Both the position numbers and the translations under genes were made by a program. The notes beneath the pieces are model-generated. The model searched no databases. It was given only the letters and a program-made list of their open reading frames with translations, and was not told the DNA's origin. Below are positions 12,903 through 44,613 of a DNA stretch of 64,000 nt, in pieces. Positions within the stretch are counted from its first letter, which is position 1; each line of letters starts with the position of its first letter. The stretch comes from Candidatus Babelota bacterium (GTDB lineage: Bacteria > Babelota > Babeliae > Babelales > Vermiphilaceae), in contig JBMOLF010000015.1 of assembly GCA_049325595.1 (NCBI GenBank), forward strand, positions 96,001 to 160,000. Direction: 5' to 3'.

Positions 12903-13376
12903 TTATTCATCATATTCAACTTCCCAATTATCAACATCTGACTCAACTGATTGATTTCTATGATTAGGCTTTACTTCTAATAATTCAGTGATTGGTTTTT
13001 CTGGATTATTTTTTTGCTTAATTTTAATTAGTTGTTTTGCCGTTACGCTTGCAGCTTGTTTTGCTAAATGAGCTTCAGCGTCAAGTTCTTTTTGTGATGA
13101 CTCAAAAATTTTATTCATATCTTTTTGCATTTTGCTTATTTGACGCTTTAATCGTAGTATCATTTCTACGCCAGCTAAGTTAATACCCAGTTGATGAGTC
13201 AAATAAACTATTTCTTCCAGACGATCTACATCTTCTTCAGAAAATAAACGGGTGTTCCCAGAAGAGCGTTTAGGATTAATGAGTCCTTCTTTTTCATACA
13301 AACGGATTGTTTGCTGATGGATAGAAAACATTTTTGCTACCGCTGAGATTGAAAAAAAGCCTTTCTTGCGTTTCAT
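12903..13376 (-). CDS. hspR: MerR-family heat-shock repressor HspR
   Basis: ISAVAKMFSIHQQTIRLYEKEGLINPKRSSGNTRLFS...LGINLAGVEMIL matches HspR pattern. Confidence 0.85.
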   Translation of the reverse strand: MKRKKGFFSISAVAKMFSIHQQTIRLYEKEGLINPKRSSGNTRLFSEEDVDRLEEIVYLTHQLGINLAGVEMILRLKRQISKMQKDMNKIFESSQKELDAEAHLAKQAASVTAKQLIKIKQKNNPEKPITELLEVKPNHRNQSVESDVDNWEVEYDE

Positions 13377-35959: not shown

Positions 35960-37177
35960 ATGAATAAAAAATTACTTTATGTTTTTTTAGTTGCATTTCT
36001 TTTTGATCATGGTTCGATTAGTTCGGCTGAAAAAAATTCCAAATTAATCTTTAATACGCCACTTAGTAATAGATTAAAAAAAGATTTTTTTCTTCAAGCT
36101 ACGCAAAAAAAGTCATGGGAAAAATCTTGCGAGCACATTTACAATAAATATTCCAATAACAAAAAAGACATAAGTCCTTTGGGTGTAGGTTTAGATGTAA
36201 CAAATCAAATCTCTTTCAATAGTCAACACGCAAACAAATCTCAAACTGATGCTTATTTATCTGTGATTAGTTTTAATAAGAGTCTATTTTGGCCAATAAT
36301 AGAGAGATGCAACATGCAATTGTTAATTAAAAAAATGATTGAACAAGAACGCATTATGGCAAAAACGCATTATGTTTTTTATCATGGTCAGAATAATACC
36401 TTTATCTTGTTGCAAGATATATTAAAAGAATTTGCTCAATTGAATTCTCAACATACCACCAATGAGAATTTTGAATTTTTACGATCACCATTTTCATCTC
36501 TAAGCGGCACTACAGTTCAAGATTTTCTAAAGGAAACGTTGGAAAAGTATCCATGCAGTAATTACGACAAAAAACCTGATATTAGCTGTCATCTTATTTC
36601 AGCTAATTTAAGTATTTTTGGTAATGAAACGCGCAACGGTGAAAATTCACTTTTTTATTTTTTGACTAACTACAGTTCATCACTAAATGATTTAAAAAAA
36701 ATTATTACTGAACTATTTATCAAGCTTAATATTGATCAAAATCATGTAGACAAGGTAATCAATACATACAAGCCCTTATTCAACAAATCAAATTATGGCC
36801 TTATGCAGCAGATTTTCATTCCAAAAAACCTTGTTGATTCTTGTGTTTATTTATCAGAGCCCTTTGGTATTCCTTACAAAGAGCAAATTGATAAAAATAC
36901 TTTTGATACTGTAAAGCGTATGCATACCAAAATTTCTTCTATTTTGGAGTTATACCAAAAAGAACCTGAAGCACTCAACAAGTCAACTTGGTACAAGTGG
37001 TTCACGCTATCAGAGAGTCATTTGATGAAAATGCAAGCCCGAATTTTAATGACTAAGGATATAATGCTAAATCCCAACAGTGGTGTAAAAATTTATCGAC
37101 ACCATAAATTTGATGTTGAGGTATACAATCAGTGTAAAGCAGAGTTGAGAAAAATTATTAATTTAATAAGATCATAA
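35960..37177 (+). CDS. Secreted hypothetical protein (YVFYHG motif)
   Basis: 405-aa ORF, signal peptide, TTGACA...TATTCT promoter-like sequence and GGGGG RBS upstream. Confidence 0.75.
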   Translation: MNKKLLYVFLVAFLFDHGSISSAEKNSKLIFNTPLSNRLKKDFFLQATQKKSWEKSCEHIYNKYSNNKKDISPLGVGLDVTNQISFNSQHANKSQTDAYLSVISFNKSLFWPIIERCNMQLLIKKMIEQERIMAKTHYVFYHGQNNTFILLQDILKEFAQLNSQHTTNENFEFLRSPFSSLSGTTVQDFLKETLEKYPCSNYDKKPDISCHLISANLSIFGNETRNGENSLFYFLTNYSSSLNDLKKIITELFIKLNIDQNHVDKVINTYKPLFNKSNYGLMQQIFIPKNLVDSCVYLSEPFGIPYKEQIDKNTFDTVKRMHTKISSILELYQKEPEALNKSTWYKWFTLSESHLMKMQARILMTKDIMLNPNSGVKIYRHHKFDVEVYNQCKAELRKIINLIRS

Positions 37178-37308: not shown

Positions 37309-39192
37309 TTAGCTAATGTCTGCATCAATTGGACCATTGTCAGATTTGGTATCATCTGATTCTGGTTTTTGTTCTGCGCCTTCAGCGCCACCTTGTTTGT
37401 ACAACAATTCAGCTACTTTGTGAGACGCTTTGAGCAATTCATCGTGAGCTTTTTGCAATTCTTCTGCATTATGCTCATGTTCTTTGAGTGCAGATTTAGC
37501 TTTATCGATTGCTTGTTGCAGATCTTGTGCATCTTGAGCAGGGATTTTTTCTTTATTCTCTGCTAAGGTTTTTTCGATTTGCAAGATGGTGCCATCAAGT
37601 TGATTTCTTTTTTCAACTGTTTCACGGGCTTTTTTGTCTTCAGCTTCGTGTGCTTTTGCATCTTGTACCATGCGATCGATTTCTTCTTTGCTTAAGCCGC
37701 TGCTGCTGGTAATAGTGATTTTTTGCTCTTTACCAGAAGCTTTGTCTTTTGCAGAAACATGTACAATACCGTTAGCATCGATGTCAAACGACACTTCAAC
37801 TTGTGGAACGCCACGAGGAGCGGCAGGAATACCTTCTAATCTGAATTGGCCAAGCATTTTGTTATCTTTGGCAAATTCACGCTCACCTTGGAATACACGA
37901 ATATCTACGGCTGTTTGATTATCTTCAGCAGTTGAGAATACTTGTGATTTCTTGGTTGGGATTGTGGTATTACGTTCAATTAACTTGGTCATCACGCCGC
38001 CAAGGGTTTCAATACCAAGTGACAACGGAGTAACGTCAAGCAAGAGTACATCCGTTACTTCACCTGCTAATACACCACCTTGAATTGCAGCGCCAACGGC
38101 TACTACTTCATCAGGGTTTACTGATTTGTTAGGTTCTTTACCAAAGAACTCTTTAACTAATTGCTGTACTTTTGGAATACGGGTTGAACCACCAACTAAG
38201 ATAACTTCGTCAATTTGGCTTGGGCTTAATTGTGCATCAGCAAGTGCGCGTTTGCATGGTTCGAGTAAGCGTTTGAAAATGTCTGAGCAAAGAGACTCAA
38301 GTTTTGCACGAGATAATTTGATATTCAAGTGCTTAGGACCGGTTGCATCAGCAGTGATGTAAGGCAAATTGATATCGGTTTCGTGTAAGGTTGAAAGCTC
38401 TTTTTTTGCTTTCTCAGCCGCTTCTTTTAAGCGCTGTAACGCCATGCTATCTTTAGTAAGATCGATGCCTTGCTCTTTTTTAAATTCATCAGCAATGTAA
38501 TCGATTAACACATGGTCAACGTCGTCACCACCAAGATGGGTGTCGCCATTGGTTGAGCGCACTTCGATAACGCCATCATTAATTTCTAGGACTGAAATAT
38601 CAAATGTACCACCACCAAAGTCAAACACGGCAATAGTACCACTTTTTTTCTTATCAAAGCCATAGGCTAATGCTGCTGCAGTAGGCTCGTTGATGATACG
38701 TTTTACTTCTAAGCCTGCAATGCGACCTGCGTCTTTGGTTGCTTGACGTTGTGAGTCGTTAAAATAAGCAGGTACCGTAATTACCGCTTCGGTAACTTTT
38801 TCGCCTAAAAACTCTTCAGCGGTTTGCTTGAGTTCGCTCAAAATAGCCGCAGATATTTCTTGTGGGGTATATTCTTTGCCTTGTGCGACGATAGCAATGT
38901 CGCCATTGCTGCGCTTTACTATTTTGTAAGGCATTTTTTTGATTTCATTGGTCATTTCATCATATTGATGGCCAATGAAACGCTTAACTGAATAAATGGT
39001 GTTTTCAGGGTTGGTAACTGCTTGACGTTTTGCTAAGGTACCTACCAAACGTTTGCCATCTTTGGTAAATGCAACGATAGAAGGGGTTGTATTTGAACCA
39101 TCTTTATTAGGAATAACTTTCGGGGTACCACCTTCCATGAAGGCTACTACCGAGTTGGTTGTTCCTAAATCTATGCCAATTATTTTTGCCAT
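37309..39192 (-). CDS. dnaK: Molecular chaperone DnaK
   Basis: [42 protein letters not shown], substrate-binding domain. Confidence 0.99.
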
Positions 39193-39268
39193 GGATTTAG
39201 CCCTTTAGTTTTATAGTTGGTTTTCGTTAAAAATATTTGATTTTAATAATCTCATAAAATCCCTATAA

Positions 39269-39298
39269 ATTATAGATAAAACATACCCCCTCTGTCAA
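39269..39298 (-). promoter_or_regulatory. sigma70-type dnaK promoter
   Basis: Minus strand TTGACA (39298-39293), 18 nt, TATAAT (39274-39269). Confidence 0.75.
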
Positions 39299-39315
39299 AC
39301 AAATACTAAAAAAAT

Positions 39316-39334
39316 CTTAGTCTTTTACACTAAG
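39316..39334. promoter_or_regulatory. HAIR-like HspR operator
   Basis: CTTAGT-N7-ACTAAG perfect inverted repeat just upstream of dnaK -35; HAIR consensus CTTGAGT-N7-ACTCAAG; hspR present in window. Confidence 0.65.
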
Positions 39335-39554
39335 CTTTTATATAAATAAAAATTTAACTTTTAACCTGAATAAATTTATGTAAATTTTTTCTATGTTCGA
39401 TAATGTTTCACACAGGCATAAATAATTATAAGCGTCGCATAACGAAAGTATTCTGTAACAATATTCGATCGACGCACTTGATTGACCTGTTTTTTTTCTG
39501 ATTTTGTTTGCGCGATTTGAGCCCTTATTTATAAGGTTTTTAGGAGTAATTGAT

Positions 39555-40440
39555 TCGCGCGGCGCGCGACAGGGCACTCCGTCTGCACCCCTCAGCCCAT
39601 TTTGTGGGTAGGGAAGGGGGGCTTACGGGGATTTGACTCCGTTAAAAACAGGAAGCAGGAGGAAGAAGAGGAAAGCGAGGGGGAAAGGATTAAAAATAGG
39701 GGAAAGAAAGGATGGGGGAGAAAATAAGGGAGGAATAAATAAAAGAGATAGGTTAGGTGTAGAGGTATAAGTAATAAGAATAATAGACACCTGTATATAA
39801 GCACATGGCATGACTTAGCTAAAAGATAAATAAATATGATGTATGATGTAGGAATTAAAACTATATAGCATTAAAACAAAGTAAAAACTTACTTATATAA
39901 AAAGTATACAAGAGAATAAGATATGAGAGATAAGAGAAAGAGAATATGCATGATATATAGACTTAGAATATATAGGGTGAAGATAAATAGAAATCTAAAG
40001 ATTAAGAAATAAGAGCAAAGTCAAAAACTAAGACTAAGAATACTCGCTAAAGACATAACTAGTACTAAGATTAAACAAAGAAGAAGAGTAATAAACAATA
40101 AGCAAAACTAACCGATAAGAAATAAACAATAATAAAGCAAACTAATAAGATAACCAAGAAGAACAAGAAGCTCTATAAATTTATGGAGCAAAAGAAGAAC
40201 TTAAGCAAGAAGGCAAATACCAATAAGAAATCTACTGATTATTATTAGAAGAGTATAACTAGCTAATACTAAAAAAAGACGTAGTTAGAAAAGAAGAAGG
40301 GTGATAAGAATAAGAAGAAGAAGAAAAGGAATATATCTTATTAAAATACCGTTAAGAGGAAGATCAAAAACTCCACATCGCATGAAAAGAACAGTAAGAC
40401 AATATCTTCACACGAACCAATCAAACGTTGCGCAATAATT
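39555..40440 (+). other. Non-coding tract: GC hairpins, G-quadruplex motif and purine-rich strand (candidate origin/control region)
   Basis: GGG-TA-GGG-AA-GGGGGG-CTTAC-GGGG at 39606-39630; only 5 pyrimidines in 39661-39720; no credible ORF. Confidence 0.55.
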
Positions 40441-40565
40441 TGAGCCAAAATAACCAATAGATACGCTATTTTTTCTCATTTAATAGTTTTATTTGTTAAA
40501 AAAATAAGTAGTCCAATATATTTTTTTTTACATTATATTTTTAGATGAAAATCATACTTATCATA

Positions 40566-41879
40566 TTATTTAAAAAATAACCTAAAAGGGGAAAGACGGC
40601 GCGGCTGGTTCTTATAATCATTTTTTATTATCACTATCTCCTGCCATTTAACCTTTTTAGTAGCAAGCCACATTATTACCATGCTTACTAATCTCACCGT
40701 TTGAATCGCCACTAATGCAAATAACAACCCTGTTTTTGCAACGATCACTACTACAATAGCTGCCCCATACCCTAGCCCGTATACAATATATGAAGTAATT
40801 AATTCTTTATAACGCCCTTGCACTTCAAGTATACGCTCATAAGGTAATAATAATGATTCTGCTATGTAAGAACAAATTAAAATAAGTAACGGAACAAAAA
40901 ATTGATTATCAAAAATATACGGCAAACAAATAAGCAATAACATTAATAACATAATAAGAGGTATAGTTAACAACATGACCTTTCTTTTTAGGTGAATAAC
41001 CGACTTATTAAAAAAGTTTTGTTCTCCTAACTCATTAGCATATGAGAGAAATGCTGTATCAGCTGATCCAAGAGATTTTACTACTATCCGGTAACAGGCG
41101 AGCGCGGCGTCATTAGTTATTTTGTAAAGAGTGGCACTTTCTATTCCTAGCGTGGCGGCAAAAAAAGGTAATAAAAAGTTTCGCTCGCTCAAGCTTTTTA
41201 AAATGGTAGTAACGCCCATTATGCCTGTATGCTTGGTAAATGAATTTTCAATTGTTGGTGAACCAACAAACGGTACTTGCTGGACTATAAACCTCTTGAG
41301 ATTAATTCCTGTTATTAAAACGGCCATACCTGTGGTTAATAATTTGACCATTAACAGTTTCTCAAGAGTTAAACAAGTAAATGCTATATAACTAATACCG
41401 AGTATTTCGATGGCAGTTACGAGTATTAAAACACAATTGAACTGTTTATTTAAAAAATAGGCGTGAGAAATATTTTGAAGTAAAAAAACAATTCCCTGAG
41501 CTATAAATAGCGTTAAATATAAAATTATTTGGGTGGCTGAAAAATAAGGAAACAAGAATCGATGAAAAAAGAAGATTCCTAAACTCGCTACACCTAGCAG
41601 AGCTAATTGAAAATAAATAATTTTCTTAATAAGGCTATGCGATTGCTGTAGTAATGATAAGGCAAATCGGGCAATTGATTTTTTTAGACCACAATCAAGC
41701 CACAAGAGAATAAGATATAACAATGCCAGGCTATGCGACCATTGATAGAAAATAAAAGTATCGCCGCAATAATATACACAATAAGAACTGAGCAGTTGCG
41801 CAATCTTGGTGCATGAAAAAAGAAGTGCGTTCCAGGTAAGAGCTGAAGTAAATGAAGAAAAAAGATGTGCTGATTTCAT
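40566..41879 (-). CDS. Multi-pass membrane protein, Wzx/MOP flippase-like
   Basis: ~12 hydrophobic segments; paralogous to 43297 (LTWN/LIWN, YERILEVQG/YERLLRVQG). Confidence 0.65.
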   Translation of the reverse strand: MKSAHLFSSFTSALTWNALLFSCTKIAQLLSSYCVYYCGDTFIFYQWSHSLALLYLILLWLDCGLKKSIARFALSLLQQSHSLIKKIIYFQLALLGVASLGIFFFHRFLFPYFSATQIILYLTLFIAQGIVFLLQNISHAYFLNKQFNCVLILVTAIEILGISYIAFTCLTLEKLLMVKLLTTGMAVLITGINLKRFIVQQVPFVGSPTIENSFTKHTGIMGVTTILKSLSERNFLLPFFAATLGIESATLYKITNDAALACYRIVVKSLGSADTAFLSYANELGEQNFFNKSVIHLKRKVMLLTIPLIMLLMLLLICLPYIFDNQFFVPLLILICSYIAESLLLPYERILEVQGRYKELITSYIVYGLGYGAAIVVVIVAKTGLLFALVAIQTVRLVSMVIMWLATKKVKWQEIVIIKNDYKNQPRRLSPFRLFFK

Positions 41880-41995
41880 AGTGACTGCGTAGGTTATGTA
41901 TAAGAATCATTGTACTATAATGCCAAATAGTTGCTCAGAACGATAGCTATTTGTTATGGTTAGCATAATTTGTGGTGTTTCACTTAAGGAATATA

Positions 41996-43285
41996 ATGAA
42001 TTTAAAGAGAGTGGTAGTTTTAATTATGGCGATAAAGCTAACCATGCTCGGAGCTATTTTTATTAATTCTTACGAGGATAACAGCCGTTTTTTTATTGGT
42101 AGACAACCAGAAGACGATAGTCGCTTTTTTGCAAGCGATGATGAAATTATTCCCGTAGAAGCTTATGATATTTTTGGAAGCACCCGACTTATGAATGCGG
42201 TTTCAGCCCCAGATTTACCCGAAATAGTTAAATTGCTCAAAGCGGGGGCAAACGTCAATGCTCATTCAAGAGATTATGAAGGTGGAACGCCATTGATTTT
42301 TGCTGTTCAAAATGGTTTTATGCCAGGCATGTTTGAGGCCATAGCTCTGCTTGTTGAATATGATGCCGATATTAATGCTAAAGATAATGTAGGAATGACC
42401 GTATTTCATTACCTTAATAGCATTCCAGACCCTATTATGATGGAAAATTTGTTGCATTTATTTGTAGATCGTGGCGGCGATATTAATGCAATTAACAATA
42501 ATGGCGATACGATGATGCATATATTTGTATATCAATATGATCCTCAATTTATATGGATGATACGTCAAAAATATGGATCTATCCTTGATCTCACTATAAA
42601 AAACAATCAAGGTTATACACCAGCACAACTTGCACAATTATTAAGCCCTTCATTAGTGGAGGGAGATGATAGTGTATACACAGCATTAACAAAACCGCTA
42701 CCATTGGTGGGTGAAGATGGTAATGTCAATGCGCGTGATATTTATGGCAGGACTGGACTCATGCTTGCTATATTACGATCTGATATTCCTTTTATAAAAG
42801 AAATGATTGCTCGAAAAGCCGATGTTAATGCGCGTGACAATTGGTATAATACCCCACTTCATCTAGCAGCATTTAGCCAAAATCCTTTAAAAATTGCGCA
42901 GCTTCTTATCGAACAAGGTGCTCAAATTAATGTTGTAAATAGCGAAGGGAAAACGCCTCTTCGTCTTGCTCAATCTATACCCGATGGTTCGCATGTTCTT
43001 GAGTATATAACCTATCTTAAGGAACAAGGCGCTCAATTAATAGCGGTTGATAGAGAAGGATTTGATGTTGAATATTGGGCCGAGCAAAAGAAAAAGAGAG
43101 ATATTAAGCGCTTTTTAGATGAATACCATTCTTATCTTCCCGAGACAGCTGGAGACAAAAGATTTTTAATTGGATTTAATTCTATACAAAGTGAAAAATT
43201 AAATGGTGGTCAATTAAAAAAACGAGCTAAAAATTCATTGATGAGAAAAAACGGTATGTTTAAAGTATTTACCTGCGTTGTGTAG
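41996..43285 (+). CDS. Ankyrin repeat protein
   Basis: Multiple GxTPL/ADINAKD/NTPLHLAA ankyrin repeats; N-terminal hydrophobic segment. Confidence 0.92.
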   Translation: MNLKRVVVLIMAIKLTMLGAIFINSYEDNSRFFIGRQPEDDSRFFASDDEIIPVEAYDIFGSTRLMNAVSAPDLPEIVKLLKAGANVNAHSRDYEGGTPLIFAVQNGFMPGMFEAIALLVEYDADINAKDNVGMTVFHYLNSIPDPIMMENLLHLFVDRGGDINAINNNGDTMMHIFVYQYDPQFIWMIRQKYGSILDLTIKNNQGYTPAQLAQLLSPSLVEGDDSVYTALTKPLPLVGEDGNVNARDIYGRTGLMLAILRSDIPFIKEMIARKADVNARDNWYNTPLHLAAFSQNPLKIAQLLIEQGAQINVVNSEGKTPLRLAQSIPDGSHVLEYITYLKEQGAQLIAVDREGFDVEYWAEQKKKRDIKRFLDEYHSYLPETAGDKRFLIGFNSIQSEKLNGGQLKKRAKNSLMRKNGMFKVFTCVV

Positions 43286-43296
43286 AAAACTATCAA

Positions 43297-44613
43297 CTAT
43301 GAGCTTTTTTGGATTGATTTTTTAAAGAGCCCATTAAATCGTTTTATCCAAGCAATGTTCCACGAATAATCTTTTCGTTGAGTGGTCAAGCGAAGTGCAA
43401 AAACATGAATAGCTTTTATTACTGATAAAAATCCAATATAAGTGTATGCCGCTGAGGTAGTAATACATGGCAACAACGCAAGAGCTGCTGCAAAAGTTGC
43501 CATATTAAATTTAAAAATAAGATGTGCATGACCTTGAACGCGCAAAAGGCGCTCATAAAAAATTGAAACGTGTTCAAGCAGATACAAAACAAAAACAGCA
43601 ACTGAAAGACGCACATTAAATACATCAGTTTGACTAAAGAATAATCCGAGTGTTAAAAAGGTGCCACACCAAATTAATAGAGAACATGCTTTGCGCGCGT
43701 AATAAAAAATTGTCTGATAGTGAGCATGCTCTTCTTTTACCTTATGTGCAAGCAAAGCTTCAACAGATGGCCCTAATACTTTGTTTAATAAAATGCTGAC
43801 TACATAAATAATATTCCTGACCAGTTCTAAAACACCTGCTTTGTTAAAACCATAGTAAGCAGCAATAAGTGGTATCAAAATATTTCCTGAAAAAATTTGA
43901 TGGACAAACTGGCTTCCATAATTGTAAATACGTTGTTTTTTTATTCGTGTCGTATAATTGCCTTTTGTTGTCTTACGTGGAAGCATATGATATAGATGGC
44001 TTGATTTTACAATTAACAGTGTTGTACTTATTAACGATGCAATAAGCATAGGAGTTAATAAGTGAGAAATGGTAAATACTTTAGCGTGTAAATACCAGCC
44101 CCATACAAATAAAACATAGGTACCAATAAGTATAATTTCACTTATCGTGGTTGTTTGGTTGCAAAATGAAATGTGAAGGAATCTTCTGAGGGATTTTCTT
44201 ATTATCTCAACAATAATAATAAGAAGAATTATGACAAACATACCATTCGATAATTGAAGAATGGGAACTTGTAGATAACATTTGAGTACAGGAATTGTTA
44301 TAGCAAAAAAAAGCGTTGCCCAAATAGCTTGTGTTACTATTGGTTTAATGAGCAATTGATTAAATTGATATTTGCTGTCAGTAATAGTTTTATAGCTAAA
44401 GCTTAATGACTCTTCGAACCCGCTAGAAAATAATGCAATAGCGCAATAAATAAGTGAAAAATAAGTGCCTGATTGTCCATATACGTATGGTTCGGTGTAC
44501 ACGTAGGCATAACAATGATGTACCGCAAAGGTAATATGATAAAACAATGATTCAGCAATATTCCAAATCAAACTTACCGAAAATTTTTTTGAAAGTTGTA
44601 TAGTATTATTCAT
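43297..44613 (-). CDS. Multi-pass membrane protein, Wzx/MOP flippase-like
   Basis: ~12 hydrophobic segments; paralogue of 40566. Confidence 0.65.
   Translation of the reverse strand: MNNTIQLSKKFSVSLIWNIAESLFYHITFAVHHCYAYVYTEPYVYGQSGTYFSLIYCAIALFSSGFEESLSFSYKTITDSKYQFNQLLIKPIVTQAIWATLFFAITIPVLKCYLQVPILQLSNGMFVIILLIIIVEIIRKSLRRFLHISFCNQTTTISEIILIGTYVLFVWGWYLHAKVFTISHLLTPMLIASLISTTLLIVKSSHLYHMLPRKTTKGNYTTRIKKQRIYNYGSQFVHQIFSGNILIPLIAAYYGFNKAGVLELVRNIIYVVSILLNKVLGPSVEALLAHKVKEEHAHYQTIFYYARKACSLLIWCGTFLTLGLFFSQTDVFNVRLSVAVFVLYLLEHVSIFYERLLRVQGHAHLIFKFNMATFAAALALLPCITTSAAYTYIGFLSVIKAIHVFALRLTTQRKDYSWNIAWIKRFNGLFKKSIQKSS

Follow-up and report, generated by a model that had tools for sequence, protein, structure and literature searches.

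Several large orphan noncoding RNAs of bacteria, among them OLE, GOLLD, ROOL and HEARO, were discovered by comparative genomics before their functions. Here we describe an RNA locus that resembles them in being lineage-restricted, long and noncoding. It lies in a 64,000-nt window (positions 96,001-160,000 of contig C15) of the genome of a Candidatus Babelota bacterium (hereafter, G000; 1.29 Mb in 24 contigs, ~34.5% GC), in a gene-free gap of 1,373 nt between dnaK and an open reading frame (ORF) of 437 amino acids (aa). We consider it probable that the locus is a single-copy gene for a lineage-specific noncoding RNA (ncRNA) of the Dependentiae/Babeliales, encoded on the plus strand and transcribed away from dnaK, and very likely that it is a structured ncRNA gene.

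OLE, GOLLD, ROOL and HEARO are structured throughout, whereas the new RNA combines a small structured head with a long, weakly structured purine body and tandem boxes, and none of their Rfam models in the searched library matched the locus. A search of the whole window with Rfam 15 at gathering threshold returned 0 matches (the best permissive match, E = 0.67, was to a microRNA model), and the transfer-messenger RNA, RNase P RNA and signal recognition particle RNA are located elsewhere in the genome. Like 6S RNA, the new RNA is of single-copy housekeeping type and has two conserved strands that flank a terminal stem, but these strands pair to leave a 3 × 3 loop rather than a large bubble resembling an open promoter, and the 6S model (RF00013) matched neither the G000 genome nor, in the permissive Rfam scan, the stretch. 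As in the CsrB, RsmY and RsmZ sponges, there are many short purine words with GGA, suggesting titration of a binder; the words of the new RNA, however, are not in hairpin loops, neither CsrA nor Hfq was found, and in G000 the count of Shine-Dalgarno-like (SD-like) words is what composition predicts. The locus does not have the makings of an oriC, a 6S RNA, a Csr-type sponge, a riboswitch leader or a dif site, and is best described as a new family among the bacterial lineage-specific long ncRNAs, with an unusual head-body-box layout.

The Dependentiae (TM6) are widespread, mostly uncultured parasites of protists, and the order with the RNA is associated with amoebae. Among the titles and abstract openings of the literature on noncoding RNAs, RNA motifs or small RNAs with dnaK or HspR in Dependentiae/Babeliales there was nothing relevant, and as far as these go the locus is previously undescribed and no RNA regulator has been described for the Dependentiae. 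An RNA that 13 of 21 families keep as a single copy next to the main chaperone gene likely matters for Dependentiae physiology, and its invariant internal loop gives a concrete handle for a partner search. The head-body-box make-up is unusual for bacteria and provides a test case for the escape of long untranslated transcripts from Rho. The analysis also locates the terminus of replication and a dif-like site of these genomes, with dnaA ~50 kb from the terminus side.

Conserved hairpin core on the plus strand

A DNA search of relatives matched the gap in two parts only, the dnaK promoter region and a GC island (84% in G001, a complete genome of the same genus, with weaker matches in two other genera). 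The relatives share a plan, i.e., GCACUCCGUCU, a stem-loop of unrelated sequence, GACUCCGU and a purine-rich stretch, with CGCG/GCGC-rich segments ahead of the 5′ motif. The 3′ motif, in the form G[AC]CU[N]CGU, was found 60-216 nt past the 5′ strand in 23 of 24 instances, and the remaining one has GACUGCGU. Single-sequence folds revealed that the two motifs pair with each other, with 2 nt between each motif and the closing of the stem across the 24 instances. The conserved strands CACUCCGUC and GACUNCGU(G) pair as GUC:GAC and (C)AC:GU(G) around an invariant UCC/UNC internal loop, below a strongly covarying stem; the base of the ~85-nt core hairpin is 5′-CAC UCC GUC-3′ against 5′-GAC UNC GUG-3′, with the invariant 3 × 3 pyrimidine internal loop in its middle. 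The plus strand folds more stably than its reverse complement in 22 of the 24 instances (summed −711 vs −509 kcal/mol), which points to G-U pairs and hence to an RNA on the plus strand.

Since an alignment of 13 sequences with MAFFT and RNAalifold had shifted arms and missed the stem, we adopted a seed model of 4 sequences with a supplied structure, which was enlarged twice (R1 to R2 to R3). In alignments fitted to the model, 92.8% of the stem pairs were paired among 19 sequences (56.7% when shuffled), with compensatory changes at 11 of 11 pairs, and 87.2% of the extended structure was paired among 56 sequences (65.9% when shuffled, 29-44% in slid controls), with double changes at 15 of 18 pairs. 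The upper helix showed compensatory changes at all 9 pairs, with 93.2% of cells paired. Among the same 56 sequences, pair G23-C177 is GC in 52, AU in 4 and broken in none, and for pair U25-A176, 50 sequences have UA, 1 has CG and 5 are unpaired; 29 sequences keep the outer pair and 25 break it, and the UCC/UNC loop is invariant. The core hairpin with this loop would be a recognition module for a protein or RNA partner.

Other pairings were dropped. A pseudoknot of CUCC in the 5′ motif with GGGG in the loop came from RNAalifold on a poor alignment, and the invariant motif gives no covariation check on it. A closing helix of the 6S type is not general, a flank duplex beating shuffles in 6 (z < −2) to 8 (p ≤ 0.05) of the 56 loci. 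As for a partner in trans, the genome has only 2 further copies of ACGGAGUG, and at neither does the complementarity extend.

The core is the sole covariance-model match in G000, and every positive genome has exactly one copy with all models. R2 detected it in 53 of 80 genomes of the family and 62 of 151 of the order; with R3, 66 of 151 Babeliales (Dependentiae) genomes were positive, in 13 of 21 families, and a phylum sample of the same families gave 65 positives out of 151. The 121 genomes searched from the phylum of a 'Candidatus Falkowbacteria' metagenome-assembled genome (MAG) gave no core, nor did 4 other genomes. The number of positive genomes is a lower bound: G040 carries a diverged copy despite being model-negative, and in family f17 the model-negative case shows a diverged core and a tail of 73% purine and 1-2% C upstream of dnaK. 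A locus in family f3 (L248, genome G046) has, ~229-320 nt upstream of dnaK, Box A (described below), a short purine stretch and no core hairpin, together with a long perfect hairpin AAAAGCAATCTGGGCC...GGCCCAGATTGCTTTTG; by its sequence it may be a short version of the RNA. A scan of the order for the exact 11-mer GCACTCCGTCT gave raw counts close to those of a reversed-pattern control, and genuine copies were told apart by their context. A different repeated element also begins with GCACTCCGTCT(T/A)CG (L103 and L119 in G149, L121 in G076, L101 in G075); three copies in G149 come after tRNA-like 3′ ends (GGTTCGAGTCCCC...), a context unrelated to that of the dnaK-linked RNA.

The initial annotation of the window had reported ~1.3 kb without a credible gene and had named a long ncRNA as an alternative to a replication origin. 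There is indeed no ORF >79 aa in 39193-40565, the longest being of exactly that length, and the long ncRNA gains support from the covarying, strand-specific core, its single copy and its conservation across the order. The signals picked out in that annotation are likewise present: hairpins TCGCGC-GGC-GCGCGA at 39555, CCCA-TTTTG-TGGG at 39596 and ACGGGG-ATTTGA-CTCCGT at 39625, the G-quadruplex (G4) motif GGGTAGGGAAGGGGGGCTTACGGGG at 39606-39630, a T-rich stretch (T fraction 0.51 in 39481-39545), a purine bias (55 of 60 bases in 39661-39720) and recurring words (13 ATAAG and 3 ACTAAG in 39645-40400). Its list of further G-runs was right for 39679, 39699 and 39714 (at least 4 G each) and overstated for 39728, which is merely GGG. 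The AT-rich segments at 39300-39450 and 40450-40600 (GC 0.17-0.25) have ordinary intergenic values for a 34% GC genome. The G4 motif occupies the loop and 3′ arm of the core stem and recurs in 8 of the 56 homologous cores (0.3 expected from shuffles); it is an enriched lineage feature without a defining role for the RNA family.

Probable start region, purine-rich tail and downstream boxes

Upstream of the core on the same strand, most loci have a box (hereafter, Box A; Table 1) with the family consensus T-T-TGTCG[C/G/T]ATAATT. No −35 element is seen in the Box A logo; transcription from a weak promoter-like match at 39397-39426 (TCGATA-18-AATAAT) would begin at Box A, and we place the start tentatively at or just before it (~39433). 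In the minimum free energy (MFE) fold, Box A lies within a 5′ hairpin at 39432-39475.

The region that follows the core is extreme in composition. Positions 39645-40400 are 71.8% purine (A.516, C.090, G.202, T.192), and the top five of 12,691 genome windows of 756 nt ranked by strand purine asymmetry all fall at the RNA locus (0.713; genome median 0.525, 99.9th percentile 0.628). Across 52 loci, the tails measure 187-1448 nt, with a pooled composition of A.41, C.12, G.20 and T.27, and 48 of the 52 are >50% purine by hand reading of the table. AUAAG occurs 254 times vs 86 expected and in 49 of the 52 tails; AAGAA, UAAGG, AAGGA and AGGAA are also enriched (AAGGA, 174 vs 72 expected). The MFE of the tail is −0.117 kcal/mol/nt, about half per nt of the −0.212 of an equal-length stretch of neighbouring mRNA. 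We lean slightly towards the tail belonging to the same transcript as the core, as a weakly structured extension that, being C-poor (9% C in G000, 4-24% across loci), would be a poor loading site for Rho, which is encoded in the G000 genome.

The commonest 5-mer upstream of 852 putative starts is AAGGA, and the 16S rRNA ends in CCUCCUUU. SD-like 5-mers number 410 across the tails vs 266 ± 20 expected (1.5-fold over composition), and in many relatives the tail might hold 30S subunits or a purine-binding protein through its AAGGA/UAAGG words. A function as a sponge or platform is nevertheless unlikely in our judgement, and a ribosome sponge is a low-odds idea, the SD-like excess being present overall and lacking in G000. 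A CsrA or Hfq sponge was rejected, as the partner proteins were not found in the genome.

Downstream of the core and on the same strand, 52 of the 56 loci contain ACCAAU-N2-4-ACG (hereafter, E-box), and in 26 of the 56 two E-boxes stand in tandem 36-41 nt apart; the tandem pair was seen in 1 of the 56 reverse-strand controls and in none of the 56 upstream ones. In G001, 32 single E-box matches were read by hand (this is not a pair count), and only those at the RNA locus form a pair with the 36-41 nt spacing. The E-boxes and the U-run that follows them may mark the 3′ end of the RNA. An E-box-like word is also seen at C10:103943 and C19:5307 of G000, in two long, near-identical stretches without a purine tract that resemble paralogous coding sequence and may belong to a repeated or mobile gene.

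Between dnaK and Box A lies a repeat resembling the HAIR consensus, CTTGAGT-N7-ACTCAAG as given in PMC6102357. It is 18 nt upstream of the dnaK −35 element, not over it, and a HAIR-like repeat (≤2 mismatches) occurs between dnaK and the core in 31 of 56 loci vs 1 of 56 downstream. As an inverted repeat at a chaperone promoter in a genome with a MerR-family, HspR-like ORF (12903-13376 in the window), it is a probable HspR operator. Heat-shock control of the RNA would be plausible from its position beside dnaK; we regard control by HspR or heat shock as possible and rather doubtful.

Several findings weigh against a dnaK-linked ncRNA with this make-up. We infer transcription, the ends and the strand from covariation and G-U pairs only, and the pair counts come from alignments biased toward the structure, the independent check being the single-sequence folding of 24 instances. 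No model match was obtained in 85 of the 151 order genomes, and 39150-40650 gave no intrinsic terminator. In G012, the core is separated from the E-boxes by two minus-strand ORFs, so the two need not share one transcript. Four of the 52 tails are not purine rich (0.34-0.49), and SD-like words in the G000 tail (13 vs 12.5) do not exceed composition. CsrA (PF02599) and Hfq were not found in G000, which is 95% complete, and the usual sponge partners are therefore missing. Lastly, the median distance between the HAIR repeat and Box A is 103 nt, with only 3 of 29 loci having 40 nt or less, a spacing that lends weak support to direct control by HspR.

Chromosomal position and competing readings

The cumulative GC skew of contig C15 rises from base 1 through the locus (135.2-136.6 kb), peaks at 166,947 and then falls, the locus lying 31 kb before this maximum. 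The G001 chromosome (1,222,284 bp) has a clean V-shaped skew with its minimum at 1,135,744 and maximum at 484,766, and the homologous locus, at 510.4 kb, is separated from the maximum by 26 kb and from the minimum by ~625 kb. Sampled skew in two other complete genomes agrees: the core is at 749,456 within a + to − switch at 715-800 kb in G056 (another family), and at 1,073,261 within a switch at 1,040-1,140 kb in G018 (another genus). Ribosomal RNA genes are generally co-directional with replication, and the 16S gene stands on the plus strand of a contig whose plus strand is G-rich, which therefore fits the usual skew polarity; the gene-strand bias in G001 is too slight to strengthen the case from skew.

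A dif-like site, TTCCGATAAT-N6-TTATGTAAAAA, assigned by the dif consensus, is 12 kb (G001) and 9 kb (G000) away from the skew maximum. It was found in 21 of 151 order genomes vs 1 control match, is single-copy and is probably the chromosome dimer resolution site. By hand-read coordinates, the core and the dif-like site are 24.6-40.3 kb apart in all 10 genomes that have both on one contig (9 and G001), and the RNA points toward dif in each of them; the two sit on separate contigs in two further genomes. With its 6-nt centre the site is 38-40 kb from the locus in G000 and G001. From the RNA direction and the divergent dnaK synteny it was deduced that dnaK points away from dif, head-on to the fork, in the same 10 genomes, an unusual orientation for a highly expressed gene such as dnaK.

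Box A itself was considered as a dif site and rejected, its second arm being absent or variably spaced and a better site existing elsewhere. Box A (TGTCGCATAAT) resembles the XerC-side arm, and a TTATGTTAA-like arm comes next in some families, but many loci lack the second arm (genus g10 is an example), the spacing varies from 11 to 13 nt by hand count, and GTCG[CGT]ATAA occurs 10-11 times per genome, unlike the single dif site.

The position near the skew maximum, or inside the switch interval, and the 25-40 kb distance and direction relative to dif would fit a DNA-level terminus element, in which a programmed R-loop or protein-bound boxes slow or organise the converging forks or the Ter region near dif; the resemblance of Box A to one Xer-site arm fits as well. 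Conserved gene order around dif would, however, give this appearance even if the locus had no part in termination, the core stem has G-U pairs and a strand asymmetry typical of RNA, and the E-box pair that hand reading found only at the RNA locus in G001 leaves no opposed set across dif as in fork traps. We see a small chance for such an element, and equally for a three-part ncRNA (a protein-recognition hairpin, a Rho-proof transcript led by G clusters and rich in purines, and 3′ boxes) that would act as an R-loop or ribonucleoprotein on converging forks or Ter organisation in Dependentiae, its conserved place 25-40 kb from dif and transcription toward dif then being due to a job at the replication terminus.

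The locus could instead regulate dnaK in cis (as an extended or decoy region for HspR binding, an insulator or a divergent promoter) and not be a functional RNA. A divergent DnaK match is found upstream of the core in 50 of 56 loci (203-1229 nt away, median 360), the HAIR-like repeat often stands in between, and AUAAG/ACUAAG, the most enriched words of the tail, resemble the HAIR half-site ACTAAG. HspR occupancy can reach 70-80 bp, according to PMC6102357. The core nonetheless lies 93-571 nt past the HAIR repeat, the tail has half-site-like words in direct orientation and no inverted repeats, and in G004 a core and purine tail occur without a DnaK match within 1.5 kb upstream on the contig. 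Binding to double-stranded DNA does not explain covariation that preserves pairs, nor G-U pairs on one strand, and we hold this reading to be improbable.

Little credit is due to a cis-acting leader (riboswitch or attenuator) of a downstream gene since lost or displaced, which we think very improbable. The conserved hairpin with its invariant internal loop does resemble a ligand or protein pocket, and a switch-like alternative pairing is conceivable: in genus g10 and G012 (8 of 56 loci), a strand just after Box A (P0) is complementary to the 5′ motif over 9-14 nt, substitutions on the two sides matching (no control >8 nt), and its pairing would open the base of the hairpin. A plus-strand ORF follows 200-1100 nt downstream in a few loci (L098, L108, L099, L100 and L094). 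In most of 24 loci, however, the next sizeable downstream ORF is on the opposite strand, as is the 437-aa ORF of G000; a look at the downstream genes turned up no conserved family except a convergent membrane protein, the homologue of that ORF, found within 1.5 kb in 12 of 56; and Rfam offers no match.

A decaying, non-functional spacer, in which the purine bias is a by-product of mutation or slippage and the hairpin a leftover terminator or repeat, is also hard to credit. The tails do evolve fast, vary in length as given above and contain short tandem repeats typical of slippage, and reduced genomes carry gene remnants. Against this, conservation of the core, Box A and the E-boxes spans 13 families, with a single copy kept, the compositional bias recurs in 48 of 52 otherwise unrelated tails, and the hairpin has no U-tail, nor was a terminator found.

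The locus is not a replication origin, although the initial annotation had proposed an unusually designed one, perhaps with a G4/R-loop as primer. When G clusters precede a purine-rich transcript, R-loops and stable RNA:DNA hybrids are favoured, and in sequence the locus has what such priming calls for (a G4 motif with G-runs and 71.8% purine over 756 nt, flanked by AT-rich segments), resembling in this the ColE1 RNA II and mitochondrial CSB II primers; unlike these, it lies on the terminus side, not at a strand-switch minimum, with no indication of an origin function. The annotation's remark that no perfect TTATCCACA is present was accurate: none was found with ≤1 mismatch on either strand of 39193-40565, nor any DnaA-box-like word in 505-515 kb of G001 or any cluster near the locus. 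An origin apart from dnaA is required somewhere, as dnaA is away from the skew minimum, but by the annotation's own test there is no skew switch at the locus, where the skew and the dif-like site 25-40 kb away (10 of 10 genomes) mark the terminus side, the G056 and G018 cores fall inside + to − switch intervals and the 16S strand fits the usual polarity, and we give an origin almost no credence. The dnaA gene is 81 kb from the locus in G000 (C15:216868-218202); there and in G001 (C1:430943-432286) it is ~50 kb from the skew maximum and far from the minimum. A single DnaA-box-like word was seen near the G001 skew minimum, at 1,135,567.

Feature coordinates and neighbouring genes

Table 1 Features of the RNA locus and its surroundings (window coordinates unless a contig is given).
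Feature	Position	Strand	Basis
dnaK, divergent neighbour of the RNA locus	37309-39192	−	NCBIfam DnaK equivalog NF001413, 1017 bits
dnaK promoter TTGACA-18-TATAAT, sigma-70-type	39269-39298	−	12/12 consensus match, pattern match only
HAIR-like inverted repeat CTTAGT-N7-ACTAAG, probable HspR operator	39316-39334		consensus likeness
Box A GCGTCGCATAAC, probable 5′ end/start region of the RNA	39432-39443	+	51/56 loci, upstream of core, same strand
GC-only hairpin TCGCGC-GGC-GCGCGA, immediately 5′ of core	39555-39569	+	CGCG-type clamp in relatives
Structured RNA core	39559-39644	+	covariance-model match: R1 27.9, R2 59, R3 51.7 bits
5′ conserved strand GCACUCCGUCU	39574-39584	+	invariant in seed set; pairs with 3′ strand
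Variable stem P1 with G-rich loop, contains G4 motif 39606-39630	39585-39634	+	covariation
3′ conserved strand GACUCCGU	39635-39642	+	regular expression G[AC]CU[N]CGU
C-depleted A/G-rich tail with AUAAG, AAGAA and AGGA words	39645-40413	+	composition
E-box 1 GAACCAATCAAACG	40414-40427	+	ACCAAT-N2-4-ACG pattern
E-box 2 TAACCAATAGATACG, then T-run	40451-40465	+	tandem with E-box 1
Convergent 437-aa ORF bounding the RNA locus	40566-41879	−	no Pfam family
Ankyrin-repeat protein	41972-43285	+	Pfam Ank families, E ~1e-28
dif-like site TTCCGATAATG(C/A)TCATTATGTAAAAA	G000:C15:175962-175987 (outside the window); G001:C1:472648		dif-like pattern

The DnaK sequences closest to that of G000 are from 'Candidatus Babeliales/Dependentiae' MAGs (75-81%). 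The initial annotation had gene orientation diverging at the gap, which holds in part: the genes it named on the left are all on the minus strand, but plus-strand ORFs also occur on that side (e.g., 35960-37177), and the first three ORFs on the right run −, + and − (40566-41879, 41972-43285 and 43297-44613). Ankyrin proteins are typical host-interaction proteins in intracellular bacteria; the ankyrin-repeat ORF near the locus is flanked by two ORFs without a Pfam family.

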